Assembly: GCA_025059535.1 (NCBI GenBank) | Contig: JANXCX010000024.1 | Location: 23,425-87,424, forward strand | From: Bacteroidia bacterium | Lineage (GTDB): Bacteria; Bacteroidota; Bacteroidia; SpSt-205 | DNA: 64,000 nucleotides | Direction: 5' to 3' | Shown here: positions 7,137 through 50,242 of the stretch, piece by piece | Layout: each line of letters begins with the position of its first letter | How positions within the stretch are numbered: position 1 is the first letter of the stretch | Notes under the pieces: model-generated | Database searches by the model: none | The model's input: only the letters and a program-made list of their open reading frames with translations | What the model was told of the DNA's origin: nothing | Program-made: the position numbers and the translations under genes

Positions 7137-7802
7137 TCAAGCTGGCTCACCCCATTTGCGCAAAGGCACAAATCGGAAGTAGCCTTTGGTCTCCCGATGG
7201 ATTTGGCCGTTGCGTTTGCTATACACCGTCATTTGCTGGGTGCCGTCTGGTCGGCCTATTGGTGCTACCAAGCGACCACCTTCGGCTAGTTGGTCAAATA
7301 GCCCTGGCGGCACGCTCTCGGCCGCCGCCGTAAGGAGAATGCGATCAAAGGGCGCATAGGTAGGCCAGCCCAATCGTCCATCCCCCCAACGCAAATAAAC
7401 TACATATCCTAGCCCCTCCAGGAGGGCTCGCGCCCGCTCATACAGTTCCCGCTCCAATTCCACGGAATATACCTCTGCCCCCAGCTCGCACAGAATAGCC
7501 GTCTGATAACCCGAGCCGGTACCAATTTCTAGGACGCGCTGCCGAGGCGCCACCTCTAAAAGACTGGTCTGATAGGCTACCGTGAAAGGCTGGCTAATCG
7601 TCTGTCCGCAAGCGATAGGTAAGGCTTTATCCTCATAGGCATGTTCTATAAAAGTAGGCTCTACGAAGAGATGGCGCGGCACGCGACCTATCGCCGCCAG
7701 CACAGCGGGGTCTTGTATGCCTTTCTGAATTAGACTTTCTACCAGCTGGCGACGCTGCCCCTGATAGCGCGGCGGATCCCACTCAAGCGGCAATCGCTTC
7801 AC
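7137..7802 (-). CDS. pcm: Protein-L-isoaspartate O-methyltransferase
   Basis: RQLVESLIQKGIQDPAVLAAIGRVPRHLFV, then a SAM-binding motif VLEIGTGSGYQTAIL and DRILLTAAA. The likely start is the GTG at 7802, which overlaps the TGA of the upstream gene in a GTGA arrangement. The ORF track extends it to 7928. Confidence 0.8.
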   Translation of the reverse strand: MKRLPLEWDPPRYQGQRRQLVESLIQKGIQDPAVLAAIGRVPRHLFVEPTFIEHAYEDKALPIACGQTISQPFTVAYQTSLLEVAPRQRVLEIGTGSGYQTAILCELGAEVYSVELERELYERARALLEGLGYVVYLRWGDGRLGWPTYAPFDRILLTAAAESVPPGLFDQLAEGGRLVAPIGRPDGTQQMTVYSKRNGQIHRETKGYFRFVPLRKWGEPA

Positions 7803-8542
7803 AAAGCCGAAGCCGAGAAAGAAGTAGAATGCACCGGAGAAACTGATGATCCTGGGGTCGTATAACCAAAGAAATATATCCCCACCTGTAAGGGATGGAC
7901 ATTGGCTGGTCCGCGCCCGCCACTCCACAGCGGCGATAAATTATACGAAGCAAAAAGCCCTATACTTCTATAGCCTATGCGGGCACCTAAGCCATACTGC
8001 AAAATATCCGTATGCACCACGTCGTTGCCGTATGAAATAAAGCGGGCTAGTTCCCCATTCTGCGCGTATTTGCGTTTGTGTTTGCTCCACAGTAAAAGCT
8101 CCCCAAATCCATATAGGGCAAAGTTAAAGGCCCCTTTTAGAAGACCCAACTCCACAGGCACCCGCAGGTAACCCAGCTGCAGTTTGCTTTTAGCCATTAC
8201 GGAAGAAGGCAGATTTTCTACTAAGTAGCCTAGTTTATTGTCTGGAGTACTGAAAAGTCGCACTATTTTAGCGAAGCGTACTTCACGGATGGTAAGGCCT
8301 AAACCCGCCCCCATATAAAAGGGGCCTAGGCGGAAAAAGGGGAGTGTAGCGAAGTTAACCTTGATGGAGCCTGCACCTCGTAGGGAGCCCTGTAAAGTTT
8401 CAGGAATACCTAAGAAGCGATTATACCCGATTTCAAAGTAAGTCTGCCAGCCCCAACGGGACTTTCGGACCATTTCTGGGGGCGTTTGTTGGGCCCATAA
8501 CATGGCGCCTGTGAGGCCTACCAGCGCTGGGCGAAGGCTCAT
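7799..8542 (-). CDS. Outer-membrane beta-barrel protein (porin-like, OmpA/OmpW-type barrel)
   Basis: Signal peptide MSLRPALVGLTGAMLWAQQ. Alternating hydrophobic/aromatic beta-strand pattern with Y/F/G-rich turns. Confidence 0.45.
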   Translation of the reverse strand: MSLRPALVGLTGAMLWAQQTPPEMVRKSRWGWQTYFEIGYNRFLGIPETLQGSLRGAGSIKVNFATLPFFRLGPFYMGAGLGLTIREVRFAKIVRLFSTPDNKLGYLVENLPSSVMAKSKLQLGYLRVPVELGLLKGAFNFALYGFGELLLWSKHKRKYAQNGELARFISYGNDVVHTDILQYGLGARIGYRSIGLFASYNLSPLWSGGRGPANVHPLQVGIYFFGYTTPGSSVSPVHSTSFSASAL

Positions 8543-14576: not shown

Positions 14577-15632
14577 ATGCGCCGTGTATGGGTTACAGGT
14601 GGGGCAGGTTTCATCGGGAGTCACTTGGTGCGTTGGCTTGTCCGACACTACCCGCACTGGGCGATTCACACCTTAGACGCTCTTACTTACGCGGGGCATT
14701 TAGCTAATCTGGAAGACCTTCAAGGCGCTCCCAATCATCACTTTCATCAGGTAAATATCGCTGATCGGGCGGCTCTAGAGGCGCTTTGGGAGAGTGTGCC
14801 GCCGGATTGGATCTTCCATCTGGCGGCCGAAAGTCATGTAGACCGCAGCATTCTCTCTCCCCTGGACTTCGTGCATACTAACATTGTGGGTACTGCGGTG
14901 CTTCTAGAGCTAGCGCGCCATCGCTGGACTGACAAAACCGACAAGCTCTTTTATCACGTCTCTACGGATGAGGTTTATGGCAGCCTTGGGGAGGAGGGGT
15001 ATTTTACCGAAGAGACACCTTATGCACCGCGCAGCCCTTATGCCGCCTCCAAAGCGGCGGCCGACCATTTAGTGCGGGCCTACGGCCATACCTATGGCCT
15101 GCCTTATATCATCAGTAATTGCGGCAATAACTACGGCCCCTACCAATTTCCCGAAAAACTTATCCCCCTTACCATCATGAACCTGATAGAGCGTCAGCCT
15201 ATCCCCGTATATGGCAAAGGCGAAAATATGCGCGACTGGATCTATGTAGAGGATCATGTGCGGGCAATTATACGGCTGGCGGAGCAGGCCCCGCGCGGCC
15301 GCACCTACCTCATCAGCGCCCAAAATGTACGCCGCAATAGAGAAGTAGTTGAGCTCCTCTGTGATCTGTATGACGCGCTTAGAGGCACTAAGGACTCCCG
15401 TCGGCTTATTCGGTTTGTGCAGGATCGGCCTGGCCATGACTACCGCTACGCCCTCCAGCCCTCCTCTACCCTACTGGACCTAGGCTGGCAACCTGAAGTA
15501 GACTTCCATGAGGGCCTGCGCCAAACCCTTGAGTGGTATCAAACGCACCAGAGCTGGCTGAATGCCGTCCGAACAAGCGCCTACCACACCTACTATCAAA
15601 AGCAATATGCCCATAGACTATCCTCTTCCTAA
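14577..15632 (+). CDS. rfbB: dTDP-glucose 4,6-dehydratase
   Basis: GGAGFIGS Rossmann motif, YHVSTDEVYG, and YAASKAAADHLVRAY (the YxxxK catalytic motif). It aligns along its whole length with the RmlB pattern. Confidence 0.9.
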   Translation: MRRVWVTGGAGFIGSHLVRWLVRHYPHWAIHTLDALTYAGHLANLEDLQGAPNHHFHQVNIADRAALEALWESVPPDWIFHLAAESHVDRSILSPLDFVHTNIVGTAVLLELARHRWTDKTDKLFYHVSTDEVYGSLGEEGYFTEETPYAPRSPYAASKAAADHLVRAYGHTYGLPYIISNCGNNYGPYQFPEKLIPLTIMNLIERQPIPVYGKGENMRDWIYVEDHVRAIIRLAEQAPRGRTYLISAQNVRRNREVVELLCDLYDALRGTKDSRRLIRFVQDRPGHDYRYALQPSSTLLDLGWQPEVDFHEGLRQTLEWYQTHQSWLNAVRTSAYHTYYQKQYAHRLSSS

Positions 15633-22709: not shown

Positions 22710-24032
22710 CTAGCGTGCGGTAAGCTTGTCCGATTCTATTTTGGCTGCGGCTCGGAAGGCTCGGAAGGTAACCTTATCGAAGGCTTCACGCGCCTTATCG
22801 GTCTGACCTTTCTTGCGAGCCGAAAGGCCTATCAGAAAGTAGGCTTGGGAGCGGCGCATCTCATCATTAGCCAAAGCGGGTAAAAGCTGTTCCAAGGTAC
22901 TTATAGCTTCGTCGTACCGACCCATCAGATAGTAGGATTGGGCTTTGAGGAGCAGTACGTTGATGCCCGTGTTGGATTCTCTGGGGGTTCGGCGGAGGAT
23001 GCTATCGGCTGTATTTATGACGCCGCTATAATCCCCGGCATTATATTGAAGGCGGATAGCTCGGTTATAGAGCGCGGTCCGACGCTTCTCATCGGACTCA
23101 TTAGCTGCCGCCTCTAAAAAGCTGCGCGCCGCTTCCGCTACCCTCCCCTTTCGGAAGAGGATAGTGCCCTGAAGCATATATACCATATTGAGTCGATCCT
23201 TTGTCTTGAGAGCTTCATTTACATACTCCATTGCCTCGTCTAGAGCCCCCACACGGAAATAGGCGGAGGCAATGCTGAGGTTGCGTACGGCCCCGGATTG
23301 AGCTATGGTGCGCTGAAGTCTCTGCCTATACCGTGGATCCTGTATAAGCTTAGCATATTTTTCATATTCGGCCATGTTTCCAGCCTTATAGTGGGCTAAA
23401 GCGAGCCCAAATAGGAAACGCGCACTCTCAACCGGGGAGGTCTGCGTGATATCATAGCCGCTCTGAAACGCCGCTATAGCGCTCTGAGGATTATTGAGAT
23501 TGAGGTGAAGCTGACCTTCCGCAAAAAGTACATCTAAAGATTTGGCGCTATTGGGTATGTCCCGCTTGAGGTTAGCAAGTTCGGTAAAGGCTTCTTGGCT
23601 GCGACCTTGGGTGCCCAACAGGCGAATTGCATTCAACTTATACCGGATGCGCCGATCGGTATCGGTGTCACGCTGATAGCCTTGATTGTAAGCTTCTACA
23701 GCGGCGGCGTAGTTTTTCTGCTGGATGTGAATAGAAGCCATACGCGCATATACGCCTGGTAGGGAAGGATTGAGCTCGGCCGCTTTCTTGTAGGCTTCAA
23801 GCGCCTGATCATACCGCTTGAGAGCCGCCAGCACTTCGCCTTTGCGCATGTGCAATGGGGCCTTGGTCATGTCTAATTTTATCGCTTCCTCGTACTTTTG
23901 CAGGGCCTCTTCATACCGCCGCTCCTTTCGGAGCCTATCCCCCTCCTGAACCAGCGCTCTTATCCCGCCCTGCGCATACATCAGAGAACCCACGAAGCCC
24001 AGCGAGAGAAGCAAGGAGTGTAAGGTCTTCAT
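22710..24032 (-). CDS. Secreted tetratricopeptide-repeat (TPR) protein
   Basis: Signal peptide MKTLHSLLLSLGFVGSLMYAQG, taken from the internal Met. Many 34-residue TPR units of the A-x-x-x-Y-x-x-A-L type. Confidence 0.7.
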   Translation of the reverse strand: MKTLHSLLLSLGFVGSLMYAQGGIRALVQEGDRLRKERRYEEALQKYEEAIKLDMTKAPLHMRKGEVLAALKRYDQALEAYKKAAELNPSLPGVYARMASIHIQQKNYAAAVEAYNQGYQRDTDTDRRIRYKLNAIRLLGTQGRSQEAFTELANLKRDIPNSAKSLDVLFAEGQLHLNLNNPQSAIAAFQSGYDITQTSPVESARFLFGLALAHYKAGNMAEYEKYAKLIQDPRYRQRLQRTIAQSGAVRNLSIASAYFRVGALDEAMEYVNEALKTKDRLNMVYMLQGTILFRKGRVAEAARSFLEAAANESDEKRRTALYNRAIRLQYNAGDYSGVINTADSILRRTPRESNTGINVLLLKAQSYYLMGRYDEAISTLEQLLPALANDEMRRSQAYFLIGLSARKKGQTDKAREAFDKVTFRAFRAAAKIESDKLTAR

Positions 24033-38845: not shown

Positions 38846-38889
38846 TACCCAAAGGTACAATTGCCTTATATTTGTACAAAGTGTGGCCC
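38846..38889. promoter_or_regulatory. Compact divergent promoter region: TAccTTTG (minus strand, for gcvT) and TAtaTTTG (plus strand, for the GT4 gene) flank a perfect palindrome TTTGTACAAA
   Basis: Both -7 consensus motifs (TAnnTTTG) lie within 44 bp. The palindrome 38871..38880 is shared between them. Confidence 0.35.
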
Positions 38890-39924
38890 ATGCTTGAATT
38901 GGGCGTCTTGTTGATAGGTTTTCTCTCTGCGTGGGCATGGAATGAGATTTTCTTACGCTTTGCGAAGCGACTGGGTGCTCTGAGCCAGGGCCTTCCCCAC
39001 CAGCGCCGATGGGATAGCAAGCGTAAGCCGATTATCGGGGGTATAGCCTTTTTTGTAATTGTTTTAGGGCTTGGGGCCTGGCAGCCCAATGGCGTGCCCC
39101 TCAGTCGGGCCTTCCTAGCTGGAGGCACTATCGCTTTCCTGACAGGCCTGGCGGATGACGCCTTTGTTTCCCTCCCCTACATGAAGCTACTAGGCCAAGT
39201 AGGGGCGGCCCTGGCCACGCTTATACTTGGAGGGGCTAAACTGGAAATAGGCCATCCCTTCCTCTCCTTAGTGCTAACCCTTTTCTGGTACGTGGCGGTC
39301 ATGAATGCCCTGAACCTCATGGACAATATGGATGGGGTTGCGGGAAGCCTCACGCTTGTTCTGCTGACGGGATCTTTCTTGCTTCTGGGTAAGAGCGATT
39401 ATTCGCTCCTTTATGCGGCCCTGATAGGAGCGATAGCGGCTTTTCTACTGCGCAACTGGTACCCTTCTCATTTGTATATGGGCGACAATGGAAGCCATTT
39501 TTTAGGGTATGCATTGGCCTATCTGGGTATCCAGCTATGGCATAGTCCACTCCTTAGCCCATGGGTCCCCTGGGAAAAGCTCCTATGGCTTGTCGGTATA
39601 TTTGCGCTCTTAGCGGCGGATACATTTTGGGTGATTATAAGCCGCCTTGTGGAGCAGCGCAGCCCTTTCAGCGGCGGTACGGACCACCTTACTCATCGGT
39701 TAGCCCAGCTTGGCCTCTCTGTACCCCAAATCGCCCTAAGCCTAGCAGGATGCCAAGGGGTTATTATTCTTTTTAGCTTTGCTGGGCTTCGGTGGGGTGA
39801 GTGGGTCTGGCCCGCTTTGGCTATCATAGGCGTCTGCGGTATAAGTGTAGGAGGGGTACATATCTATCTCCTCCGCTCCCTCCGGGCTAAGCCAATAGAG
39901 CGCCGAGCCCCTTCCCCCCCTTGA
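38890..39924 (+). CDS. Glycosyltransferase family 4 (MraY/WecA-like polyprenyl-phosphate N-acetylhexosamine-1-phosphate transferase)
   Basis: Polytopic membrane protein with VMNALNLMDNMDGVAGS (the NxxNxxDGxDGL motif) and a DDxxD-like loop (LADDAFV). Confidence 0.85.
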   Translation: MLELGVLLIGFLSAWAWNEIFLRFAKRLGALSQGLPHQRRWDSKRKPIIGGIAFFVIVLGLGAWQPNGVPLSRAFLAGGTIAFLTGLADDAFVSLPYMKLLGQVGAALATLILGGAKLEIGHPFLSLVLTLFWYVAVMNALNLMDNMDGVAGSLTLVLLTGSFLLLGKSDYSLLYAALIGAIAAFLLRNWYPSHLYMGDNGSHFLGYALAYLGIQLWHSPLLSPWVPWEKLLWLVGIFALLAADTFWVIISRLVEQRSPFSGGTDHLTHRLAQLGLSVPQIALSLAGCQGVIILFSFAGLRWGEWVWPALAIIGVCGISVGGVHIYLLRSLRAKPIERRAPSPP

Positions 39925-41087
39925 GGCTACTGTACTGGCAGTACTTTTTTACCCCGCCAGGCGGCTGGGGTAATCGTCGTAGTTATGACTTTCTACGGCT
40001 GTGGCGCCAAAGGCATGAAGTATGGATCTTAGCTGGCGGTACTTACTTCCCCCCAAACCGCTACAAGCGCCGTGCCTTCCGCTCTCCTGAGGGAATTCCG
40101 ATTGTATGGCTACCGGCCCCCTACCACCAACGGCTTGGCCTACTGAGCCGCCTAATAGGCTTTCTGCGATTTACCTTCTGGGGTCTTTACATTTTGTGGC
40201 GCCTTCGCCACCGAGGCCTTGGTATCATTGCTACCACGCCGCCGCCTACCCTTCCCCTGGCGGCTTGGGTATGGAAAATAGCCACGGGCCGACCCTATGC
40301 GGTCGAGCTATATGACGCCTGGCCTGAAATTCCCATCAAATTGGGAAAAATACCTCCGCCTTTTAGCTGGATCTTGCGCTGGGTAAGTATAAAGTCCTAT
40401 CGTGAGGCAGCGCTCTGCATAGCTCTCTCCCCCAGCATAGTTCAGCTTTTCTCCAAAGTACCCATGCACCTCAGTTATAATGGTACCCGCCCAGAGCTTT
40501 TTCGCCCGCGCGCTATACCCCCCTTTCTACCTTTCCGAGTCGTATATGCCGGTACTCTCGGCTGGGTAAACGGCGTAGGCTTTCTTTTAGAAGTCGCCCG
40601 CTTTTTGCAAAGTAGCCCGGGTATTGAATTTTGGATTATTGGGGATGGGAAGGAAAAGCCCGCCTTAGCGGCAGCAAGCCAACAGCTGCCCAACGTCAAA
40701 CTCTTTGCCCCTGTCCCTGTAGAAGAGCTCCCCTACTGGCTGTCTCAGACCCATATCGGCGTTTCTTTGGTCCGGCCCATTCAGATACTTGCCAGCAATA
40801 GCGCCAATAAATTTTACGATTACTTAGCGAATGGACTGGTAGTGGGCCTCAACTATGGCGGCTGGCAGGCTGAAGTTTTGCAGAAAAATGGGTGTGGGTT
40901 CAGCGCTACAACACCACAGGACTTTGCAGAGAGGATCTGGTACTACTACTACCAGCGGAGGGAGTGGGCCTATGCGGCTGCACGGGGTCGCCAGCTAGCC
41001 GAGCGCTTCTACGACCGTACGCAGCTGGCCCGCGAAGTGGAAGAGGCCCTGCTCAAAGCCTTTACCGCCTCTCAAGGCAAAAGGTAA
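39921..41087 (+). CDS. Glycosyltransferase, GT-B fold (group 1-like)
   Basis: Overlaps the GT4 gene by 4 bp. The C-terminal half has a GT1-like E-x7-E region (...VVYAGTLGWVNGVGFLLEVA...FWIIGDG...). Confidence 0.6.
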   Translation: MRLLYWQYFFTPPGGWGNRRSYDFLRLWRQRHEVWILAGGTYFPPNRYKRRAFRSPEGIPIVWLPAPYHQRLGLLSRLIGFLRFTFWGLYILWRLRHRGLGIIATTPPPTLPLAAWVWKIATGRPYAVELYDAWPEIPIKLGKIPPPFSWILRWVSIKSYREAALCIALSPSIVQLFSKVPMHLSYNGTRPELFRPRAIPPFLPFRVVYAGTLGWVNGVGFLLEVARFLQSSPGIEFWIIGDGKEKPALAAASQQLPNVKLFAPVPVEELPYWLSQTHIGVSLVRPIQILASNSANKFYDYLANGLVVGLNYGGWQAEVLQKNGCGFSATTPQDFAERIWYYYYQRREWAYAAARGRQLAERFYDRTQLAREVEEALLKAFTASQGKR

Positions 41088-44000
41088 AACAGCCGGCCCG
41101 TATGACCACCCACCTGCCAATGATAGACGCCCTCAGCCAATCCACTAGGTAGCTCATAAACCGCCCCTGCGGCGCGCAGCTCGGTCTCCCATACAAGGCG
41201 CCCCTGCACATCACGCAGTCGCAGGCGCCGATCCCCCAGGTTTTGGCTATATACTACGGTGAAGCGACCAGAAGTAGGATTGGGATAGATAGAAACGCTG
41301 GCCGATCCCGCCAGAAGCAAGGCTGCGGAGCCTTCTACCCGCACCGTCCATTCCTGCGTATGGCTGCAGCCCGTGTTAGGATCACGCCGATGGAGGCGCA
41401 CCCTATAAGACCCCGCCTGCTCAAAGGTGTGCTGAAATGTAGTCCCATTATATGAGACCCAACCATTGGAAGTTTCCACTTCCCAAGACATGACATAGGG
41501 CGCGCCGCTAGTCTCTTGCCCTGTAAGGGTCTGTCCTACTTGCAGATTAAGACCAGGTAGGAATTCAACTACAGCAGGGGCTAGCTCGCGCAGCGTAATT
41601 TCTACTTCATCGTAGCCCCAGCAGCCAGCTTCGTTGCGCGCTAATAGCCAGTAGCGGCCACTTTGCTCGGGATAAAGCACAGCCCCCGTGGTACCCGTTG
41701 ACCAAATAAGCTCCACAGCCCCTGGGACTTCGGCTCGTAGGCTATCCCCCCGACACAGAGCCCGATCGGGGCCTAAATCTACCCGCGGCGCGCTTAGCTG
41801 ACGCCAGCAGAGATACCACTGACGCGCCGCCTGCGCATTTTCCACTAGTTCGCTCAGACTTTGGCCCGCTACCAAAGCTAAGGCTATCGTATCTGTGGCC
41901 CCTGGGGCCATATTTATTCCCTGTACTCCAATCACCTCAAATACATCCCCTACAGTCAGGCTTCTATGACCAGCTTGCCGCAAAACCGCCAGATAGGCTG
42001 ACGCCGTGCCTCGGAAGGTATCCGTCAGGCCTATATGGAAATAGGGCGTATGGGCCGAAAGCAGCACCGCCCCTACAAACCGATTTGAGGCCGAATTGTA
42101 GGTGTAAATGAGGGGGAGGGAGGGCTCTACCCTGCCCCGGTCCTGCGTAGGGTTATCGCCTACATCAAAGTCTAGCCACCAACCCAAAGACAGGTCCGTA
42201 TAACCCGTGGAAGTGGGATTATGCACCCGATACACTATAGCTACGAAGGAATGCGGCAAAATCCGACGAGGGGCATAGGCCTGGGCTTGAATCCGAAGGC
42301 CTTTAGCCCCATGAGTACCGCCCGTATCGGTAAGTTCTACTCGGCCTATCTCGTAGGCCCCTTCCACCTCATGTGCCGCCGGCCCAGTGGGACGAAAGTG
42401 CGCATAAACGCGTCCCGAAGGCCCACGCGTACAGAGATGAGCACTGGTATCATTAGCTAGGTATAGGCCACCTTCTGCTAGCCAGGAGGTAGGCGCTTCG
42501 CCCCACCGAACACCCCGCCCAATCCGATAGAAGGGCGGATCATAATACCCTATGCGGCCATTCCCACCCAGCGTAGTGCGCAGGTAGGCCGAATCCAAAT
42601 GCACATAGCCCGGATTTAGCCCTTCCACTTCTATAATCTGATAGTCTCGGTACTGCTGCGCCGAACTCTCAAACTGGACCAGTAGGGGAAGGCGCGCATC
42701 TACAGGGCAAGAAGGCTGCACCTCAAGGGAAAAAGGCGCCGCTTGCGTATGGGTTTGAAGGGTGCCTAAGGCATCTATAGTATAGCTTCCGTTTCGCACG
42801 GTTAGGTGAGGCGTAAGGGAGTGCAGAGTGATTTGCAGATTTGTGGCCGGGGAGAGGTAGTTTTTGTAGGTAGGGCGGAGACTGAAGGTCTCCCCAGCGT
42901 GGGGCAGGGAATCAGGCGGGCCGAAGAGCGTCCAACTCTCCACTCGGCAGGCTGGCAGATTAAACGTACGCACGGCTCTTTCTAAGTTAGGTCGGCGACC
43001 TAACCGGTAATGCAGCTGGGAAGGATTATAAGGCTCTAAGGAGTCAGCCGTAACCCGAAGGAGTTCCACTACCTGACGCGCAGAGAGATCCGAGCGCCAG
43101 GCCCGCAGAAGGGCTAACGCCCCAGCCACCTGTGGCGCAGAAAACGAAGTGGGATGACCACCCAAAGTAGGATAGCTATTTCCATGGCCGATGGTCTTGC
43201 CTATACCCGAGCCGGCAAAGTCTATATGGTACCCTATCTGCTGTCCAGCCCACTGATCGGCTAAGGTTACAGAAGTAACCGCGCATACGCCTGGATAAGC
43301 GGCTGGGTAAAAAACAGCCGGCGTATCTGGCGGTACATTCCCCGCTGCGGCCACAATCACCGACCCATAATGCTGCTGGATAGCTGAGATAAATTCCTCA
43401 GCGGCTCGGCTATAAAAGGTAGAGCCCCAGGAGCAGTTAATGACGCTAGCCCCTTTCCGCGCCGCATAGAGGATCCCATCATAAGCTCCATAGAGTATCC
43501 AGCTATTATCTGGCGCAACCTTTACAGGCAGCACGCGACAGTTAAAGGCTGGTGCGGCTATCCCGCGCCCATTATTTGTGGTAGCGCCGGCATACCCTGC
43601 TACCCACGTGCCGTGGCCAGCTGTAGGGGCGCGTGGATCATTGTCAGGCGTGAAAGGGCCGCTCCCACTATACGAAGCTCCCACCACATCCCAACCCCGA
43701 AAATTATCCGTGTAGCCATCCCCATCGTTATCTTGGCCGTCAATAGGATCGGCCCAATTATAGGCTACATTCTCCACAAGGTCTTCATGGTCAAATTGCA
43801 CATCTGTATCCACTATGGCCACTACGACGTTTGTGTCGCCTTGAGTACTGTCCCAGGCGCCCAGAAGTCGGAAGTGGTTTATGGAGTAATTTTCTGGCTG
43901 GACATCGTTGGGGATGAAAGTCAGGCGCTCGGGTTCTAGGAGGGGCCGGGGCAGGGGCTCAGGTTCGGCATAGGCCACGGCTGGATGATGGCCCCATAAC

Positions 44001-44251
44001 TTAGCTACATAGGCCGGCGGAAGGTCGGCCTCGTACTCCAAAAGGTATATGGGATTCTTAAGGGGAAGCTCGGGGAAGCGCAGACGGACCTGACCGCGCA
44101 GCCATTGGCGAAGGGCCTCCAGATCAGCCGGCAGGTGCGCCTTTTCGCCCTCTTCTTGCCACCGAAATAAAATACGTTTAGGCCAAAACTCAGGCTGTCC
44201 CCACAGAAGTCCGAGAAGTAAGGCATACAAGGCAGTCACGCATTTCGTCAT
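41072..44251 (-). CDS. Subtilisin-like serine protease (S8 family) with a T9SS C-terminal sorting domain
   Basis: Catalytic D (VAIVDTDV), H (GHGTWVAGYAG) and S (GHPTSFSAPQVAG). The ~90-aa C-terminus (...YPNPTSGRFTVVYS...VYELPSGLAEGVYHWQVGG...FYLLP) is the por-secretion CTD. 1059 aa with a signal peptide. Confidence 0.85.
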   Translation of the reverse strand: MTKCVTALYALLLGLLWGQPEFWPKRILFRWQEEGEKAHLPADLEALRQWLRGQVRLRFPELPLKNPIYLLEYEADLPPAYVAKLWGHHPAVAYAEPEPLPRPLLEPERLTFIPNDVQPENYSINHFRLLGAWDSTQGDTNVVVAIVDTDVQFDHEDLVENVAYNWADPIDGQDNDGDGYTDNFRGWDVVGASYSGSGPFTPDNDPRAPTAGHGTWVAGYAGATTNNGRGIAAPAFNCRVLPVKVAPDNSWILYGAYDGILYAARKGASVINCSWGSTFYSRAAEEFISAIQQHYGSVIVAAAGNVPPDTPAVFYPAAYPGVCAVTSVTLADQWAGQQIGYHIDFAGSGIGKTIGHGNSYPTLGGHPTSFSAPQVAGALALLRAWRSDLSARQVVELLRVTADSLEPYNPSQLHYRLGRRPNLERAVRTFNLPACRVESWTLFGPPDSLPHAGETFSLRPTYKNYLSPATNLQITLHSLTPHLTVRNGSYTIDALGTLQTHTQAAPFSLEVQPSCPVDARLPLLVQFESSAQQYRDYQIIEVEGLNPGYVHLDSAYLRTTLGGNGRIGYYDPPFYRIGRGVRWGEAPTSWLAEGGLYLANDTSAHLCTRGPSGRVYAHFRPTGPAAHEVEGAYEIGRVELTDTGGTHGAKGLRIQAQAYAPRRILPHSFVAIVYRVHNPTSTGYTDLSLGWWLDFDVGDNPTQDRGRVEPSLPLIYTYNSASNRFVGAVLLSAHTPYFHIGLTDTFRGTASAYLAVLRQAGHRSLTVGDVFEVIGVQGINMAPGATDTIALALVAGQSLSELVENAQAARQWYLCWRQLSAPRVDLGPDRALCRGDSLRAEVPGAVELIWSTGTTGAVLYPEQSGRYWLLARNEAGCWGYDEVEITLRELAPAVVEFLPGLNLQVGQTLTGQETSGAPYVMSWEVETSNGWVSYNGTTFQHTFEQAGSYRVRLHRRDPNTGCSHTQEWTVRVEGSAALLLAGSASVSIYPNPTSGRFTVVYSQNLGDRRLRLRDVQGRLVWETELRAAGAVYELPSGLAEGVYHWQVGGHTGRLFYLLP

Positions 44252-44643
44252 GGCTCAAATATAAGCTCTAGGTCACTGCGCGTGAGCTCGGATAGACTAT
44301 ACATGCTCTCCGAGAATTCTTTACCTTCTCGGCTCATGCGTACAATGATAGTGTCGGCATGCTGGATAGCCATAGCGAAATTACCCTTGTCATCCGTGCG
44401 GGTCTCACCCAGAACGCGGCCAGAAGCTCTGTCCACGAACCATATACGCACGCTTTTCTGAGCTTCCCCTTTAGCACTTACCACTTTACCGCTTATCGTC
44501 TCCATGATCACTACTTCCTCTTGTTCAGGTGCTTGGGTGGCTGGACGGATGGGTGTGCGGCGTACCGGCACATTCGTATGGCTCCTTCCCTCCTCTTGCG
44601 CCCATAAAAGGGGTAGCGCTACGAAAGCCCACATGAGCCGTTT
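44248..44643 (-). CDS. Small secreted protein with a carboxypeptidase-regulatory-like (CarbopepD_reg) beta-sandwich domain
   Basis: Signal peptide MKRLMWAFVALPLLWAQ from the internal Met. ISGKVVSAKGE...VRIWFVD...TRTDDKGNFAM fits the CarbopepD_reg pattern. It overlaps the S8 protease gene by 4 bp. Confidence 0.4.
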   Translation of the reverse strand, partial: KRLMWAFVALPLLWAQEEGRSHTNVPVRRTPIRPATQAPEQEEVVIMETISGKVVSAKGEAQKSVRIWFVDRASGRVLGETRTDDKGNFAMAIQHADTIIVRMSREGKEFSESMYSLSELTRSDLELIFEP

Positions 44644-44670
44644 CATACAGGGGAGAAGGTAACAAAAATC

Positions 44671-46278
44671 TTGCCACAAGCGGCTCAGCTTAGCCTTTCT
44701 ACTTTTGCCCTATTTTTGCTTCAAGTGGATACACTCGTGGCCTTGTCTCTTAGCTTAGTGGCTGTTACGGTGCATCGGGAAGGAGCTATTTATCGCTATA
44801 CAGGCCTACTGCCTGTCCGAAAGGGCTATACGGAAGCGGTATGGTGGGAGCTTCCCCCCACGACCGATCCTGCCACGATTCGCATAAGTCTACTAGGCTC
44901 ATCCTCGGCAACGATTACACAAACGCGTGTGGAGAAGCTCTCGCCGATTCAGCGGCCTGATCCACCCGAAGTAAAAGTCCTACGCCAGCGCATAGATTCG
45001 CTGGAAGGCCTTCTGACACGCCTAAATAACCGCCTGGCCCTACTTCAGCTTCAAGAAAGTACTCTCTCCCAGAATATGCGCCTAGGCGGGGAAGAGAGCC
45101 CTACACACCCCGAAGAGGTGGAAAAATATTTGCTCCTATTAGAGCGCCACCTACCCCGTCTGCAGGAAGAACAGGCCCTAGTCCGAAAACGGCTAACAGC
45201 CCTCCAAGAGACCCTTAAGCACTGGCAGACGCTGTACCAAAACTACCAATCCGCCCGCCTGCAGCAGCGGGCTGTTTTATGGATAACCTGTTGGAGCAGC
45301 CGACCGGAAAATGTTTTACTGCGCGTGGAGCTAAGTGGGCCAAAGGCTGGCTGGGAGCTGCGCTACCGCCTGCGCGCCGTGCCCACCGAAGGCTGGTTGT
45401 ACCTCCAGCGCTGGGCCAGCGTAACCAACGCCAGTGGGGAAGATTGGAAAAATGTCCAGCTAACTCTTTCAACGGGCCAGCCGCAAATCAGCGGTGAACT
45501 GCCCCCTTTCCGACCCTGGTATGTGGATCTCCAGCCACCCATCCCTTGGAGCGAAGAAAGCCTTAGAGCTAAGGCCCTCCTGCACGTTGAGTCCGCCGAA
45601 GAAAAGAGGGGAGCCCCTGAAGAAGGGCCCTCTTCCCCTCCACCCCCTCCCCTCCCCAAAGCCCAGGACCAGATTCTTTCTCGCACCTATGAGCTAGGCA
45701 CCCAGACCCTTCCAGCGGCTTCCACACCCGTCCAATTTTTTCTAAGCACGGATACGCTTCCAGCTCTATTCCGATTTTTTATAAATGCCGCCGCCAGTGA
45801 TAAGGCGTATTTGCGCGCGGCTATTCCCTTAGAGGCTTTAAGGCTGTGGGAAAAAGCCCAAGCCGTCTTAGAAGTAGAGGGCCAAGAGGTAGGTCAGATC
45901 CCCTGGCCCCCTTACATAGAAGAAGACACCACATGGATAAGTTTAGGCTTGACTGAGCGCGTGAGCCTACAACGGCTATGCGTGCAGGACCACCGAGAAA
46001 GTAAGGCTATCTCTAATAAGACCGTACATCGGATGCGCTATCGGCTTCAGCTTGTTTCCAGCTACCCTCAGCCCATTTCGGTCACGCTATGGGATCGCAT
46101 ACCCGTAAGCCGCACCTCAGAAATCCAAGTGGAATTAGAAGAGGACGGCGGTGCTAGGCTAGAGGCGGATTCAGGTCGGCTGCGCTGGGATATTACCCTT
46201 CGGCCTAATGAGACCTGGCAGCGCCATTACACCTTTACCTTGAAGTATCCTAAAGGAAAGCGCGTTTGGGGTCTGTGA
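44671..46278 (+). CDS. DUF4140/DUF4139 (MuiA-like) family protein with a central coiled coil
   Basis: The N-terminal VAVTVHREGAIYRYTGLLPVRKGYTEAVWWELPPTTDPATIRISL resembles DUF4140. The C-terminal ...ISVTLWDRIPVSRTSEIQVEL... resembles DUF4139. A heptad-rich region lies between them. Confidence 0.45.
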   Translation: MPQAAQLSLSTFALFLLQVDTLVALSLSLVAVTVHREGAIYRYTGLLPVRKGYTEAVWWELPPTTDPATIRISLLGSSSATITQTRVEKLSPIQRPDPPEVKVLRQRIDSLEGLLTRLNNRLALLQLQESTLSQNMRLGGEESPTHPEEVEKYLLLLERHLPRLQEEQALVRKRLTALQETLKHWQTLYQNYQSARLQQRAVLWITCWSSRPENVLLRVELSGPKAGWELRYRLRAVPTEGWLYLQRWASVTNASGEDWKNVQLTLSTGQPQISGELPPFRPWYVDLQPPIPWSEESLRAKALLHVESAEEKRGAPEEGPSSPPPPPLPKAQDQILSRTYELGTQTLPAASTPVQFFLSTDTLPALFRFFINAAASDKAYLRAAIPLEALRLWEKAQAVLEVEGQEVGQIPWPPYIEEDTTWISLGLTERVSLQRLCVQDHRESKAISNKTVHRMRYRLQLVSSYPQPISVTLWDRIPVSRTSEIQVELEEDGGARLEADSGRLRWDITLRPNETWQRHYTFTLKYPKGKRVWGL

Positions 46279-47825
46279 GGCGGGTGGCTTTATTGGGCGT
46301 GGGACGCTGGGGCGAAAAGCTCCTGCGCCTTTTGGAAGCCAAGGGGGCTTTGGCCAAAGTCTGGACCCGCACCCCCGCTAATTACCCTGGCTTAATGGCC
46401 TCCTATGCCCATGTCCCATGGACAGCTAATTTGGAAGAGGTATGGAATGATCCCAGCCTTACGGCGGTCTGTATAGCCACACCGGCTGCTACCCACCCTC
46501 AGCTTATCCGCCAAGCTTTAGAAGCAGGAAAAGATGTGTTTTGTGAAAAGCCGCTGGCCTTCTCCGCCAGTGAGCTAAAAGCGCTTATAGCCCTTGCGGA
46601 AAAGCGGGGCCTAATCCTCATGGGCGGACATGTGCTGCATTACCATCCCGCCGTGCTTCTCATCCAAAGCTGGATAAAGGCCGGAAAACTGGGGCGCCTT
46701 TTAGGCCTATGGTCAGAGCGGGCTAGTTTCGGTCGCTTTCCCCTCCAAGAAGATGCCCTGTGGGGGCTAGCCATCCATGATCTAGGCCTATTTTATTTTC
46801 TTCTGGAAAGCGAGCCCGTTAGCAGTGAGATTCGGGCGGAGCGCCACTGGGGCCAAGCCTGGGAGAGCGTGCGGATTGCGTTGCGGTTTAGTTGGGGCGC
46901 AGAAGGGCATATTTTCGCCAGCTGGATAGCGCCCGAACGGCGCCGCCGGCTTAGTGTGATAGGAAGCGAAGGCATGCTCACCTTTAGCGAGGAGGGCGAG
47001 AAGCCCACGCTCGTCTATTATCCCATTCGTACCGTATGGCAGAAGGGCTGGGTAGCTACACCTGCGTTAGAGGGTCAGGAAGTGCTACCCCTGCCAGCCG
47101 TAGAGCCGCTCGCAGCGGAGATAGAAGACTTTCTGCAGGCCTTAGACACGCGCCAGCCGCCCCGCACCGAGGCTAAAGCCCTCCTACCCGCCGTAGCTTT
47201 AGCCGAGCACTTGGCTCGCCAGCTGCAGCCCTCCCCCCTAAATTACTTCGTACACCCCACAGCCCTTATTGATGAGGAGGTAGAAATCGGAGAAGGCACA
47301 AAAATCTGGCACTTCAGCCACGTCCTGCGCGGCAGCCGAATCGGCAAAAACTGCGTCTTAGGCCAAAATGTGGTAGTCGGCCCCTATGTGCGCGTAGGCG
47401 ATAACTGCAAAATTCAGAATAACGTCTCCCTCTACTATGGGGTAGAGCTGGAGGATGGCGTGCTGTGCGGCCCTTCCTGCGTATTCACTAACGACAAGTA
47501 TCCGAGGGCTTTTATAGAACGACGAAATGAGTTTCTCCCCACGCGCGTGCGCCAAGGGGCTACTATCGGCGCGAACGCGACCATTATGTGCGGCGTTACT
47601 ATAGGGCGCTTTGCCATGGTAGGGGCAGGGTCCGTAGTAGTGCATGATGTACCAGATTTTGCGCTGGTATTAGGTAATCCTGCGCGCCTAGTGGGCTGGG
47701 TATGCCGCTGTGGGGAAACTCTCCAAGAATGCGAAGCCGACACCCTATATTACTGTAGCCGCTGCAACCTGCACTACCGCCGCACGCTCAAAGGCCTAGA
47801 AGAAGTTCCCCTTCAGAAGGGGTAG
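46266..47825 (+). CDS. Bifunctional fusion: Gfo/Idh/MocA NAD-dependent oxidoreductase plus left-handed beta-helix (hexapeptide-repeat) N-acetyltransferase (WbpB/WbpD-like)
   Basis: Residues 1-310 have the Rossmann fold VALLGVGRWGEK...CEKPLA.. of the Gfo/Idh/MocA family. Residues 320-519 carry repeated [LIV]G-x-x-x-x hexapeptides (IGEGTKIWHFSHVLRGSRIGKNCVLGQNVVVGPYVRVGDNCKIQNNV...). Confidence 0.75.
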   Translation: MGSVRRVALLGVGRWGEKLLRLLEAKGALAKVWTRTPANYPGLMASYAHVPWTANLEEVWNDPSLTAVCIATPAATHPQLIRQALEAGKDVFCEKPLAFSASELKALIALAEKRGLILMGGHVLHYHPAVLLIQSWIKAGKLGRLLGLWSERASFGRFPLQEDALWGLAIHDLGLFYFLLESEPVSSEIRAERHWGQAWESVRIALRFSWGAEGHIFASWIAPERRRRLSVIGSEGMLTFSEEGEKPTLVYYPIRTVWQKGWVATPALEGQEVLPLPAVEPLAAEIEDFLQALDTRQPPRTEAKALLPAVALAEHLARQLQPSPLNYFVHPTALIDEEVEIGEGTKIWHFSHVLRGSRIGKNCVLGQNVVVGPYVRVGDNCKIQNNVSLYYGVELEDGVLCGPSCVFTNDKYPRAFIERRNEFLPTRVRQGATIGANATIMCGVTIGRFAMVGAGSVVVHDVPDFALVLGNPARLVGWVCRCGETLQECEADTLYYCSRCNLHYRRTLKGLEEVPLQKG

Positions 47826-50242
47826 CCCACGGCAAATACATACTGGGCATGGGCCCCCCCAATCGGAAAAGCCTGACCCACCCAACCCATAGAGGGATTG
47901 TAGATTTGCTGCGCTAGGTCTAAGCGTATCACCAGCACGGAGAAGTCCCAGCGAAGTCCAATCCCTGCCCCTATACCTGGGTAAGGATTCTTTCGGAAAA
48001 TCCCCCGCGCATCCTCAAAAAGTGTAGAGACGATGAACCATACATTGCCTACATCTACAAATGGCGCAACCTGAAGGCCTTTGTAGAGGAATTGGCGCAA
48101 TTCGGCATTCGCTTCAAACAGTAGCGTACCGCCTGGGATGAGGAAGAGGTTTTGAGGGAAGGCATAGCGGCCAGGACCTAATGACCCAAACTGCCAGGCC
48201 CGCATGCTATTAGGTCCGCCTACAAAGAAGCGATTTTCAAAGGGCAAGTCCTGCGTGTAGTAAAGGGCCTGACCTATACCCAAGCGGCCGCGCAGATAAA
48301 GCTGCTGGGCTGGCGAAAGAAGCGCCTGCCGCCAGCGCCCCTCTAAGAGGAAACGCACAAAAACGCCATAGCGGAAACGATTAAGGAGCCGATTATCCCG
48401 ATAGGTGCTATCCAAGGAAGGCCAGCCCAGTACCAACACATGCTCCAAAAAGAAAGGCACTACCCCCCCCAATTCTACTAGCAAAGCCGAGTAATCCCCC
48501 TTGCCCTTTTCTTGAGAGACGAAGTAGTTGCGATGAGAGGCTACCTGCCAGGCCGTAATCTGGGTAAGTCGCGGCAAATAGTCCAAAAGAATAAGGCTGC
48601 GCACCAGAGGAGAAAGGAGTTCTATCTGAGCCTCAAAACCCCTTGAGAATCGGCTGTCTATGAAGGTCAGGCTAAAGGGCGTCCATACCTGCTCTTCTTG
48701 GCGTTTATCTTGGAGGAGGTAGCGGGTGGTATGGCTCCAAGAGAAAGTAGCATAGCGCCGCAAGAAATCTACCTGCTCAATATCCTGGTAAGCCAGAAGG
48801 AAGGTTGTATGGAACTGGCTAACCGTACCTGTGAGGGGGTGGGGCGCAGCCTGCCGGGGGCGAAAGGTGGCTTGCGGTAAGGTAAGAGCCACCTCACCAG
48901 CGAGGTTATACAAAGGGAGAGGCGGCTCATCGGCGCGTCGGCGAAAATAGCTCAGGGCCGCTTGAGCCCGCAGGCGTAAAGGCCAGCCCCGCCGAAAAAG
49001 CGAAAGATGGGTGAAACGTAAATTCGCACTTGCGCCGGGAAGAGGTAAGCTCCCCACAAGCGGTTGAGTAGATTGAAAGCCCTCTAGACCTACCATCACA
49101 TCCAGTGGAGGACGAAGAAGGATATCGTAATTTACATGGATACGATTCAGGGAATCCTCTTGAAAGACAGGATTGACCCATTGGACTACCTCCAGGCCTT
49201 GCATAGCGCGCTGAGAAGTCTGAATGGCACGCAGGTCATACCGCCCACTTTGGGGATAGTAAAGGCGATTTACAAATACGCGACTGTCAATTATGCGGTC
49301 GGCGCGCGGTTCAGTATAGAGAGGAATAGTCGCCTGGTGCCGCCAAAGGACAGGAGTACGCTCAGACGTACGTACACTAATACTGGGGATGCCCATAGCA
49401 TAGCGCGGATAGCCGCTGGGGAGTTGCAGGACAACCTTACAGGTAGGTTTGGCTTCGGCCTCAAACCAGCGCTCCCAGAAAAAACGGGGCTGGCGCCCTT
49501 GCTCCGGCGTATTTGTCGTATCCACCTCCCAAATAAGCTGGCTTAGAGGCAAGCCATAATACCCTTCACTAAGCAGCATAGTGTAGGTAGCTTCCCGTAG
49601 CGCATCAAGCTGCGCTAGCTGATAGGGAGCCCCTATGGGTAGTTTTTGACGCGCCCAGAAACTATCTACTAAGGCTACCATTTCGCTATCGGGGCCAATC
49701 ACATCTAGCGCACGTATGTACCAGCGGCGCCCAGGGCGGATACGGTAGGTTACCTGCACTTCCCGCTCGGTAAGGGGAAGGATGTGGGGCTGAATAACGG
49801 TTTCAAAATATCCTTCTTGCAGGTAAGCGTCTTCAAGGAGGCGCAGGTCGCGCTCTATGTTTCGGTTGGAGAGGAGGGCTGGGGGCTCGCCTATTTGGTC
49901 GCGCAGAGCCCGGCCAAGGGCATGAGTATAGTAGCGCAGCTTAGGGAAGCGGCGCAGATAGCGCCAAGGCACCCCTTGACTTTCCAAGAGCACGCGTCCG
50001 GCCCAGTGGAGCTGGAGTCGGACACGCAGCCCAAAAAAACGCATGTTGCTGTGGGTATAAAGAGGAGGCGTCTCTTCAAGTACGTGGCCACGCAAAATTG
50101 GCCCACGAAAAACGAGGCGCTCTCCGGGTGCAAGAAAGTAGGCAGGGGCGCATCCACTAGCGCCCAGCAGGCTAAGCAAACACCACCGGCTGGCCCGCTG
50201 GGCTACCACAGAAGTACCCGCGCCAAAAGCTGAGCTCGCCAT
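47813..50242 (-). CDS. Omp85-superfamily outer-membrane protein (BamA/TamA-like, POTRA plus beta-barrel)
   Basis: POTRA-like NIERDLRLLEDAYLQEGYFETVIQP...EVQVTYRIRPGRRWYI. Long C-terminal barrel ending ...QYVFAVGYPF. Possible lipobox LLGASGC near the N-terminus. 809 aa. Confidence 0.5.
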   Translation of the reverse strand: MASSAFGAGTSVVAQRASRWCLLSLLGASGCAPAYFLAPGERLVFRGPILRGHVLEETPPLYTHSNMRFFGLRVRLQLHWAGRVLLESQGVPWRYLRRFPKLRYYTHALGRALRDQIGEPPALLSNRNIERDLRLLEDAYLQEGYFETVIQPHILPLTEREVQVTYRIRPGRRWYIRALDVIGPDSEMVALVDSFWARQKLPIGAPYQLAQLDALREATYTMLLSEGYYGLPLSQLIWEVDTTNTPEQGRQPRFFWERWFEAEAKPTCKVVLQLPSGYPRYAMGIPSISVRTSERTPVLWRHQATIPLYTEPRADRIIDSRVFVNRLYYPQSGRYDLRAIQTSQRAMQGLEVVQWVNPVFQEDSLNRIHVNYDILLRPPLDVMVGLEGFQSTQPLVGSLPLPGASANLRFTHLSLFRRGWPLRLRAQAALSYFRRRADEPPLPLYNLAGEVALTLPQATFRPRQAAPHPLTGTVSQFHTTFLLAYQDIEQVDFLRRYATFSWSHTTRYLLQDKRQEEQVWTPFSLTFIDSRFSRGFEAQIELLSPLVRSLILLDYLPRLTQITAWQVASHRNYFVSQEKGKGDYSALLVELGGVVPFFLEHVLVLGWPSLDSTYRDNRLLNRFRYGVFVRFLLEGRWRQALLSPAQQLYLRGRLGIGQALYYTQDLPFENRFFVGGPNSMRAWQFGSLGPGRYAFPQNLFLIPGGTLLFEANAELRQFLYKGLQVAPFVDVGNVWFIVSTLFEDARGIFRKNPYPGIGAGIGLRWDFSVLVIRLDLAQQIYNPSMGWVGQAFPIGGAHAQYVFAVGYPF

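Follow-up and report, generated by a model that had tools for sequence, protein, structure and literature searches.

What is the role of a single gene that seems to encode two non-consecutive steps of one amino-sugar pathway, in a region without a gene for the step between them? A 64,000-nucleotide stretch from a Bacteroidia bacterium (GTDB lineage Bacteria; Bacteroidota; Bacteroidia; SpSt-205) raises this question. The stretch, hereafter the window, covers positions 23,425 to 87,424 of the forward strand of contig JANXCX010000024.1 (assembly GCA_025059535.1). It contains a gene fusing a Gfo/Idh/MocA oxidoreductase with a hexapeptide-repeat N-acetyltransferase, directly downstream of a gene of the DUF4139 family. 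The original prediction, made from the sequence alone, likened the two halves to WbpB and WbpD of Pseudomonas and proposed that the gene pair might represent a separate route of amino-sugar modification. The evidence given below points to a protein that is likely to be a bifunctional UDP-N-acetylglucosamine (UDP-GlcNAc) or UDP-GlcNAcA 3-dehydrogenase and UDP-GlcNAc3N(A) 3-N-acetyltransferase, with its aminotransferase encoded elsewhere in the genome. The window is thus largely ordinary, apart from an operon, confined to one lineage, in which the fusion is paired with a cytoplasmic DUF4139 protein.

The two halves of the fused protein

The predicted fusion of both enzymes in one polypeptide was confirmed. 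Pfam matched GFO_IDH_MocA at aa 6-122 (E=8e-24), GFO_IDH_MocA_C3 at aa 133-238, and Hexapep/Hexapep_2 from ~aa 330 (E=8e-22). By homology, the C-terminal half (aa 321-519) is a sugar N-acetyltransferase of the WbpD/WlbB type (EC 2.3.1.201), a class for which we looked for a left-handed beta-helix (LbH), high similarity to a characterised member and a conserved asparagine in an F-T-N motif. The helix is indicated by the Hexapep match and by the C-domain of an AlphaFold2 (AF2) model, which Foldseek superposed on WlbB 3MQG with a template modelling (TM) score of 0.89. The same half matched WlbB of Bordetella petrii (3MQG/3MQH) with E=5e-61 and ~64% identity over 159 ungapped residues (WlbB residues 6-164). 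N409 aligns to the FTN asparagine of WlbB and is invariant in all 22 aligned fusions; we take it to correspond to the active-site Asn84 of WlbB (Thoden & Holden 2010 numbering), its role here being assumed. Other LbH enzymes matched this half much more weakly, e.g., FdtD (4MZU, the second-best PDB match) with 4e-38, QdtC with 1e-15, serine acetyltransferases with ~1e-9 and LpxA with ~1e-7. Compared with the 5e-61 of WlbB, the last two values rule out the serine acetyltransferase and LpxA identities, which had been named as possible refutations of the prediction. The TIGR03570 model (NeuD/PglB/VioB sugar acetyltransferases) scored below its cutoff (100.6 vs 160.8 bits), on two short stretches only.

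The C-terminal tail carries a CxC...CxxC motif (C480, C482, C497, C500), invariant in the 22 closest fusions and present in 45 of the 75 family members. The motif is missing from the other subfamilies and from WlbB, in which the position of the first pair reads S-R-H. The tail was modelled as beta-hairpins with a predicted local distance difference test (pLDDT) score of ~90, and the four cysteines probably form a structural zinc site.

The N-terminal half shows the two-domain Gfo/Idh/MocA fold with a Rossmann NAD-binding domain (PF01408, PF22725) and the EKP motif, as expected for EC 1.1.1.335. The GxGxxG (G11, G13, G16), EKP (94-96), GH..YHP (121-128) and HD (171-172) motifs are kept and are invariant in the 22 aligned diverse fusions. 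Searches with the single sequence matched many Gfo/Idh/MocA proteins; WbpB and WlbA were named neither among the best 60 of the 80 matches nor among the 50 listed Foldseek matches to the domain. A profile built from 13 diverse N-domains was run against PDB. It matched the uncharacterised 3C1A with 1e-41 and GnnA (7BVJ) with 1e-38 over the full length, whereas WlbA of B. pertussis (3Q2K) came at rank 46 with 2e-19, level with generic members of the superfamily. GnnA also occupied Foldseek ranks 1-4 for the N-domain of the AF2 model (TM 0.86-0.88, ~25% identity), and among characterised enzymes it (EC 1.1.1.374) is the best match by both profile and structure. The N-domain is not closer to WbpB/WlbA (EC 1.1.1.335) than to other subfamilies. 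As judged from these comparisons, the oxidoreductase half is of a GnnA-like lineage rather than an orthologue of WbpB/WlbA: the WbpD part of the original label stands, the WbpB part does not. The step itself is very probably of the WbpB type, i.e., the C-3 oxidation of a UDP-GlcNAc-type sugar.

The similarity to GnnA, an enzyme of the pathway to 2,3-diamino-2,3-dideoxyglucose (GlcN3N) lipid A and the closest characterised relative of the N-domain, raises another possibility: a GnnA-type dehydrogenase joined to an LpxA/LpxD-like acyltransferase for lipid A. The NCBIfam models of LpxD (69 bits) and LpxA (66 bits) do give sub-threshold matches on the hexapeptide repeats. Yet these matches span aa 314-410 only and are far under the cutoffs of 207-242 bits, and the E-values of LpxA/LpxD (~1e-7 to 1e-9) compare poorly with that of WlbB. 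Besides, the genes around members of the family are of the O-antigen or exopolysaccharide (EPS) type (Wzz, Wzx, glycosyltransferases, 2-epimerase, 6-dehydrogenase), not lpx genes. We regard a lipid A route as highly improbable.

The open reading frame (ORF) is uninterrupted at 46266..47825 (+), with 519 codons counted from a TTG, as originally described. The start codon needs correction, since the gene most likely begins at GTG 46275 rather than at TTG 46266 and encodes 516 aa (46275..47825, +). This GTG sits three codons past the TTG and overlaps the TGA of the upstream gene as GTGA, which agrees with the reported overlap between the fusion and the end of the DUF4139 gene. We took 46275..47825 as the gene because the GTGA junction is conserved and because the NCBI record GCA_033581135.1 (contig JAVQTT010000002.1), whose DUF4139 protein is 100% identical, annotates a gene of 516 aa here. 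The 519-aa form had no exact-sequence match in the databases, because they use the GTG start. The overlap would imply translational coupling from the DUF4139 gene to the fusion gene. A scan of 44100-48100 revealed no sigma-70-like promoter site, as expected for Bacteroidota, and 7 terminator-like hairpins against 3.9 ± 2.3 expected in shuffled sequences, which is not clearly above expectation. The AF2 model of the fusion protein has a mean pLDDT of 85. The features are as follows, with residues numbered on the 519-aa form.

44725..46278, + strand: DUF4140+DUF4139 protein (TIGR02231 'MuiA family'), 517 aa, no signal peptide (Pfam, NCBIfam; 100% identical to P0121)
46275..46278, + strand: GTGA start/stop overlap of the DUF4139 gene and the fusion gene (window sequence; identical junction in L001, L005, L006, L007 and L008)
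46275..47825, + strand: fusion gene, predicted GnnA-like 3-dehydrogenase and WlbB/WbpD-like 3-N-acetyltransferase domains (ORF, conserved junction, 516-aa call, homologous architecture)
46281..47222, + strand: N-terminal Gfo/Idh/MocA NAD-dependent dehydrogenase domain, aa 6-319 (Pfam PF01408 and PF22725, profile, Foldseek)
47223..47246, + strand: short interdomain linker, aa 320-327 (alignment gaps at columns ~341-352, pLDDT dip)
47247..47699, + strand: left-handed beta-helix hexapeptide-repeat N-acetyltransferase domain of the predicted WlbB/WbpD type, aa 328-478 (Pfam Hexapep, match to WlbB 3MQG, Foldseek)
47700..47807, + strand: C-terminal beta-hairpin tail with CxC...CxxC (C480, C482, C497, C500; alignment, AF2 model)

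A widespread fusion of two pathway genes

The fusion is an ordinary and widespread architecture, neither an artefact nor a rarity. Among 5.8 billion protein clusters we found 7267 matches at E<=1e-10. The best 120 of these clusters are 453-606 aa long (most ~520) and have the same Pfam architecture. The listed matches cover 85-100% of the query (one is without a figure), carry identical Pfam strings and are collinear over both domains; the sources of the best 120 include Bacteroidia, WOR-3, Desulfobacca acetoxidans, Caldatribacteriaceae, Actinobacteria and others. The frequency survey suggested in the original prediction was made in a collection with one genome per species, which gave at least 600 pattern matches. 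The best 80, which we examined, all span both domains and represent over 15 phyla, among them Planctomycetota, Nitrospirota, Acidobacteriota, Verrucomicrobiota, Desulfobacterota, Alpha- and Gammaproteobacteria, Chloroflexota, Firmicutes and Myxococcota. In the loci that we fetched, mostly from this collection, 67 of the 76 fusion-family ORFs called were full-length fusions. The alignment of 22 diverse fusions has a mean column identity of 61%, with an invariant core in the LbH domain.

The linker differs in length among homologues, and some members are split at this point. In seven loci a stop (TAA, TGA or TAG) interrupts the linker and the LbH ORF resumes in the same frame 0-24 nt later (L061:1672-1677, L065:7372-7380, L066:10982-10990, L073:9918-9929, L076:2634-2654, L078:11000-11014, L084:10934-10963). 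L031 was rejected as an eighth case, since the frames differ, the gap measures 86 nt and the LbH neighbour seems unrelated. The linker stops mark the fusion as the equivalent of two adjacent pathway genes, and since the seven in-frame split forms are dispersed across the neighbour-joining tree of the family, fusion or fission must have occurred repeatedly. They also show that the two states are one mutation apart, with the second ORF a few codons on in the same frame, so that two adjacent genes might seem fused through a lost stop or a frameshift in a sequence derived from a metagenome-assembled genome (MAG). This was the second refutation foreseen with the prediction. However, the architecture is uninterrupted in the best 120 clusters, which come from independent assemblies, and in the 67 ORFs called as full length, which represent over 15 phyla. 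The fusion is present in a finished genome, that of Desulfobacca acetoxidans (CP002629), and in five independent assemblies of the Bacteroidia clade to which the window belongs. The chance of an assembly or annotation artefact is negligible.

To characterise the genetic context, we clustered all ORFs of 88 loci, 81 outside the Bacteroidia clade and 7 inside, and annotated the recurrent clusters with Pfam. A DegT/DnrJ/EryC1 aminotransferase is encoded within 10 kb of the fusion in 48 of the 81 loci outside the clade, mostly at positions +1 (20), -1 (11) and +2 (9). A 6-dehydrogenase of the UDP-glucose/GDP-mannose family is found near the fusion in 23 loci, chiefly at -1, a UDP-GlcNAc 2-epimerase in 15, and an asparagine-synthase-like amidotransferase in 12. 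Further recurrent neighbours are epimerases of the short-chain dehydrogenase/reductase (SDR) type, PglF-like dehydratases, Wzz, Wzx and glycosyltransferases. Family-wide, the fusion is the joined version of two ordinary genes of the Wbp/Wlb pathway. The recurrent gene order is 6-dehydrogenase, fusion, DegT, 2-epimerase; the order wlbA-B-C-D of Bordetella presumably matches both this common order and the domain order of the fusion. The recurrent order matches the five-enzyme pathway to UDP-ManNAc3NAcA, i.e., WbpA/B/E/D/I (PMC10622841, PMC4031482). In this pathway WbpB and WbpD do bracket the aminotransferase, as originally stated, but they are steps 2 and 4 of five and not the first and last (PMC10622841).

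One of these loci belongs to Desulfobacca acetoxidans (L003/L004:343-13122), where the fusion lies inside an exosortase (EpsH/EpsI) exopolysaccharide cluster, after a UDP-sugar 6-dehydrogenase. This cluster also holds a Bac_transf protein, a DegT aminotransferase, a FemAB/VimA-like acyltransferase and a PglD-like acetyltransferase, echoing the association between Wbp/Vim proteins and sortases proposed previously (PMC7468200).

From the domains and the neighbourhoods, we propose that the fusion is a cytoplasmic bifunctional enzyme in the pathway to a UDP-2,3-diacetamido-2,3-dideoxy-hexose or the corresponding uronate, UDP-GlcNAc3NAc(A). With NAD+ as the oxidant, the N-terminal domain would turn UDP-GlcNAc or UDP-GlcNAcA into the 3-keto sugar by oxidation at C-3. 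A separate aminotransferase of the DegT type (WbpE/WlbC/PorR type), dependent on pyridoxal 5'-phosphate (PLP) and encoded elsewhere in the genome, would then convert the keto group to an amine. Finally, the C-terminal LbH domain would transfer the acetyl group of acetyl-CoA onto the 3-amino group. A single polypeptide for the steps on either side of the aminotransferase probably keeps them at a fixed stoichiometry and may help to pull a thermodynamically unfavourable oxidation forward. Which substrate is used (a uronate or not), how the protein oligomerises, whether it channels and which polymer receives the sugar are points that we infer. With a trimeric LbH domain joined to a dimeric Gfo/Idh/MocA domain, an assembly of higher order may result. 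The clues on the substrate diverge, since the N-domain resembles a UDP-GlcNAc enzyme, GnnA, and the C-domain a uronate enzyme, WlbB. A uronate substrate would agree with the UDP-sugar 6-dehydrogenase of the 23 loci, which is, however, no proof and would fit either order of steps. The recipient glycan may be the lipopolysaccharide (LPS), an exopolysaccharide or the glycan known from Bacteroidota to anchor type IX secretion system (T9SS) cargo, although a T9SS link for the fusion of the window is conjecture.

The Bacteroidia lineage and its DUF4139 partner

The DUF4139 gene lies directly upstream of the fusion in L001, L002, L005-L008 and L088, while the identity of the fusion decreases from 93% to 57% and the other neighbours differ. 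The close DUF4139 subfamily comprises 27 clusters (at least 41% identity), and every source name given is that of a Bacteroidia MAG. Its matches and those of the fusion's Bacteroidia subclade are on equally sized contigs (70978, 19935, 10632, 11239, 160264, 118408, 48318 and 22548), and the pair has therefore been inherited together. DUF4139 genes of 32% and 24% identity do not adjoin such an enzyme. The coupling with DUF4139 is thus real, conserved and limited to one Bacteroidia lineage, in which the fusion gene and the gene of a cytoplasmic DUF4139 protein are predicted to form a two-gene operon.

The upstream protein matched DUF4140 (E=5e-14) and DUF4139 (E=2.5e-39) in Pfam, and it belongs to the MuiA family with a TIGR02231 score of 154.3 bits (cutoff 112.6). 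The proteins of the clade begin with MDTL... and run straight into the first beta-strand without a signal peptide, whereas classical signal peptides are present in distant members of the family (P0149-P0160, P0166-P0172). In the AF2 model, beta-sandwich domains are combined with a coiled-coil hairpin of ~100 residues; no solved relative of the beta domains was found, and the literature on DUF4139 is essentially empty. The description of MuiA as a polysaccharide-associated protein, on which the original prediction had drawn, needs revision: in P. aeruginosa MuiA is controlled by sigma-SbrI, is induced by envelope stress and affects alginate promoter activity, and it is not a polysaccharide enzyme (PMC10418997).

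No aminotransferase gene adjoins the fusion, in agreement with the original observation. None of the 29 window ORFs scanned with Pfam, out of 45 of at least 180 aa and covering all those of typical DegT length, carries a DegT/DnrJ/EryC1 domain, and a DegT protein probe found no match in the window by tblastn. The ORFs scanned included no UDPG dehydrogenase and no VimA/VimE-like protein, and no porR homologue was seen. The sole match of the Desulfobacca probes (DegT, UDP-sugar dehydrogenase, PglD, PglF, Bac_transf) in tblastn was an SDR epimerase/dehydratase at 14577-15632 (+). We detected no further sugar-nucleotide enzyme in the window besides the fusion and this member of the GDP-mannose 4,6-dehydratase / NAD-dependent epimerase family (PF16363, E=5e-83). 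DegT is within 10 kb of the fusion in none of the 7 loci of the clade, against 48 of 81 elsewhere: its absence is a property of one Bacteroidia lineage. In L005, a relative at 65% identity, a divergent class I/II aminotransferase (PF00155, 399 aa; 7242-8441, -) lies just upstream of the pair. Its position is probably coincidental, because other members of the clade lack it there. The absence of DegT does not make the pair a distinct route as had been suggested, since the family normally occurs in Wbp/Wlb clusters beside DegT and dispersed Wbp genes are normal in Bacteroidota (PMC4031482).

Several observations weigh against a bifunctional enzyme of the Wbp/Wlb type. No specific NCBIfam model scores the N-domain above its curated cutoff, and the best match, the archaeal UDP-GlcNAc 3-dehydrogenase model NF040723 (presumably of the MMP0352 type), scores 93.3 bits for a cutoff of 450. 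Because of this low score, we name the domain GnnA-like and do not class it as a GnnA member. Pfam scans and tblastn found no aminotransferase, 6-dehydrogenase or 2-epimerase in the 64-kb window. The searchable literature gave no description or enzymology of any member of the fused family. Last, the dehydrogenase domain is evolving unusually fast in the Bacteroidia clade, although its motif residues are intact. Between the clade and the other fusions, identity is 33% in the N-domain and 63% in the C-domain, and within the clade 48.5% and 90%, whereas the other fusions among themselves show 52% and 62%. Other pairs with similar C-domain identity (58-70%) have ~53% identity in the N-domain. Selection on the N-domain of the clade is either relaxed or altered, and its substrate or role may have changed.

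These data could be explained by a lineage-specific function, in which the diverged fusion would work with the DUF4139 protein as a dedicated system of two proteins, on a route distinct from Wbp/Wlb, the fast-evolving dehydrogenase domain having a different substrate or a scaffolding role alongside DUF4139. The disproportionate divergence of the N-domain (33% vs 63%) would fit such a change, as would the lack of nearby DegT in the clade, the pair with its GTGA overlap kept across the sampled clade while other neighbours change, the co-distribution of the DUF4139 subfamily with the fusion clade, and the absence from these DUF4139 proteins of the signal peptide seen in distant members. Yet in the clade both domains keep all their catalytic and cofactor motifs. 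An unchanged amino-sugar substrate is suggested by the acetyltransferase domain, with its identity of ~90% inside the clade and 63% to canonical fusions. Moreover, the DUF4139 genes outside the clade are not beside such an enzyme, and a scattering of Wbp genes is normal in Bacteroidota (PMC4031482). We consider a new route unlikely, and keep the bifunctional dehydrogenase and N-acetyltransferase as the preferred interpretation.

More tentatively, and with a modest chance of being correct, the MuiA-family protein without a signal peptide could be tied to the bifunctional enzyme as its obligate partner, through translational coupling, in this one, possibly thermophilic, Bacteroidia lineage, the dehydrogenase having then evolved rapidly. 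As a scaffold or regulator, the DUF4139 protein might recruit the unlinked aminotransferase, or might couple the synthesis of the di-N-acetylated sugar to the assembly of the envelope or of the T9SS anchor.

Around the operon, the window encodes several envelope-related and glycan-related proteins. An S8 subtilase of 1059 aa, probably a protease of the T9SS type, is encoded at 41072-44251 (-); it has PKD domains and, below threshold, a T9SS C-terminal sorting domain (22 bits for a cutoff of 27). It is next to a small CarboxypepD_reg-like ORF (44248-44679, -), and both are divergent from the operon. The same two genes are upstream in L001, L002, L088 and L007 (57% identical), not in L005, L006 and L008. 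On the other side, a TamL-like Omp85/POTRA outer-membrane protein gene (47813-50242, -; NF052279, 252 bits for a cutoff of 400) converges on the fusion with a 3' overlap of 13 nt; its annotated length varies with the record (L001, 809 aa; L002, 798 aa; L088, 743 aa). Some 5 kb upstream of the operon (38872-41087, +), a WecA/MraY-family Glycos_transf_4 gene precedes a GT4-type glycosyltransferase (WcaI-like, weak match). These two genes are kept only in the closest relatives (L001, L002, L088) and could belong to the same glycan pathway as the fusion.

Significance and comparison with known systems

The two domain families and their chemistry are well known; it is the fused enzyme that we did not find described in the literature. 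Public databases name these proteins 'Gfo/Idh/MocA family oxidoreductase' or, at JGI, 'UDP-2-acetamido-3-amino-2,3-dideoxy-glucuronate N-acetyltransferase', i.e., for one half only, although they most likely perform two non-consecutive steps towards UDP-GlcNAc3NAc(A). The enzymological characterisation of one member would annotate thousands of genes and settle whether the GnnA-like lineage uses UDP-GlcNAc or the uronate. The coupling with DUF4139 could offer a first hint of what that family does and, if the protein is indeed an obligate partner, the first functional handle on a widespread and uncharacterised group.

The closest counterparts of the C-terminal half, WlbB (3MQG/3MQH) and WbpD, share with it the beta-helix, the C-terminal hairpins and the FTN asparagine motif, at the identity to WlbB given above (~64% over 159 ungapped residues). 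They differ in being stand-alone proteins of ~190 aa, and not the C-terminal half of a 516-aa protein; WlbB also has S-R-H where the fusion tail has the four cysteines of CxC...CxxC. GnnA of Acidithiobacillus ferrooxidans (7BVJ) has the size of the N-domain (~310-320 aa) and the same EKP and IHDL motifs. Yet it is only ~25% identical, stands alone and works with GnnB for lipid A, whereas the fused domain is found in clusters of the O-antigen/EPS type. WbpB of P. aeruginosa and WlbA of B. pertussis (3Q2K) are of the same superfamily and carry out the same predicted step ahead of DegT and WbpD/WlbB, but are not the closest relatives of the N-domain (3Q2K is at rank 46, E=2e-19). They act on the uronate, UDP-GlcNAcA, and recycle their tightly bound NAD(H) in a reaction coupled to alpha-ketoglutarate.

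A fusion of comparable logic exists in FdtD of Shewanella denitrificans (4MZU), where an LbH N-acetyltransferase is fused to the enzyme preceding the aminotransferase, so that two non-consecutive steps around a PLP enzyme are combined in one polypeptide. The partner domain is there a cupin isomerase (3,4-ketoisomerase), the domain order is different and the substrates are dTDP-sugars; FdtD is a precedent for the fusion (its paper is cited in PMC8040287). Porphyromonas gingivalis and Tannerella forsythia, likewise members of the Bacteroidia, have a Wbp/Vim pathway that combines the same WbpB/E/D chemistry with dispersed genes. In P. gingivalis, wbpA, wbpB, porR and wbpD are scattered in the genome (PGN_0613, PGN_0168, PGN_1236 and PGN_0002) (PMC4031482). 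Unlike in the window, WbpB (PGN_0168) and WbpD (PGN_0002) are encoded there by separate genes. The Wbp genes of P. gingivalis are needed for A-LPS and for the anchoring of T9SS cargo, their product feeding the A-LPS sugar that links this cargo (PMC4031482, PMC7468200).

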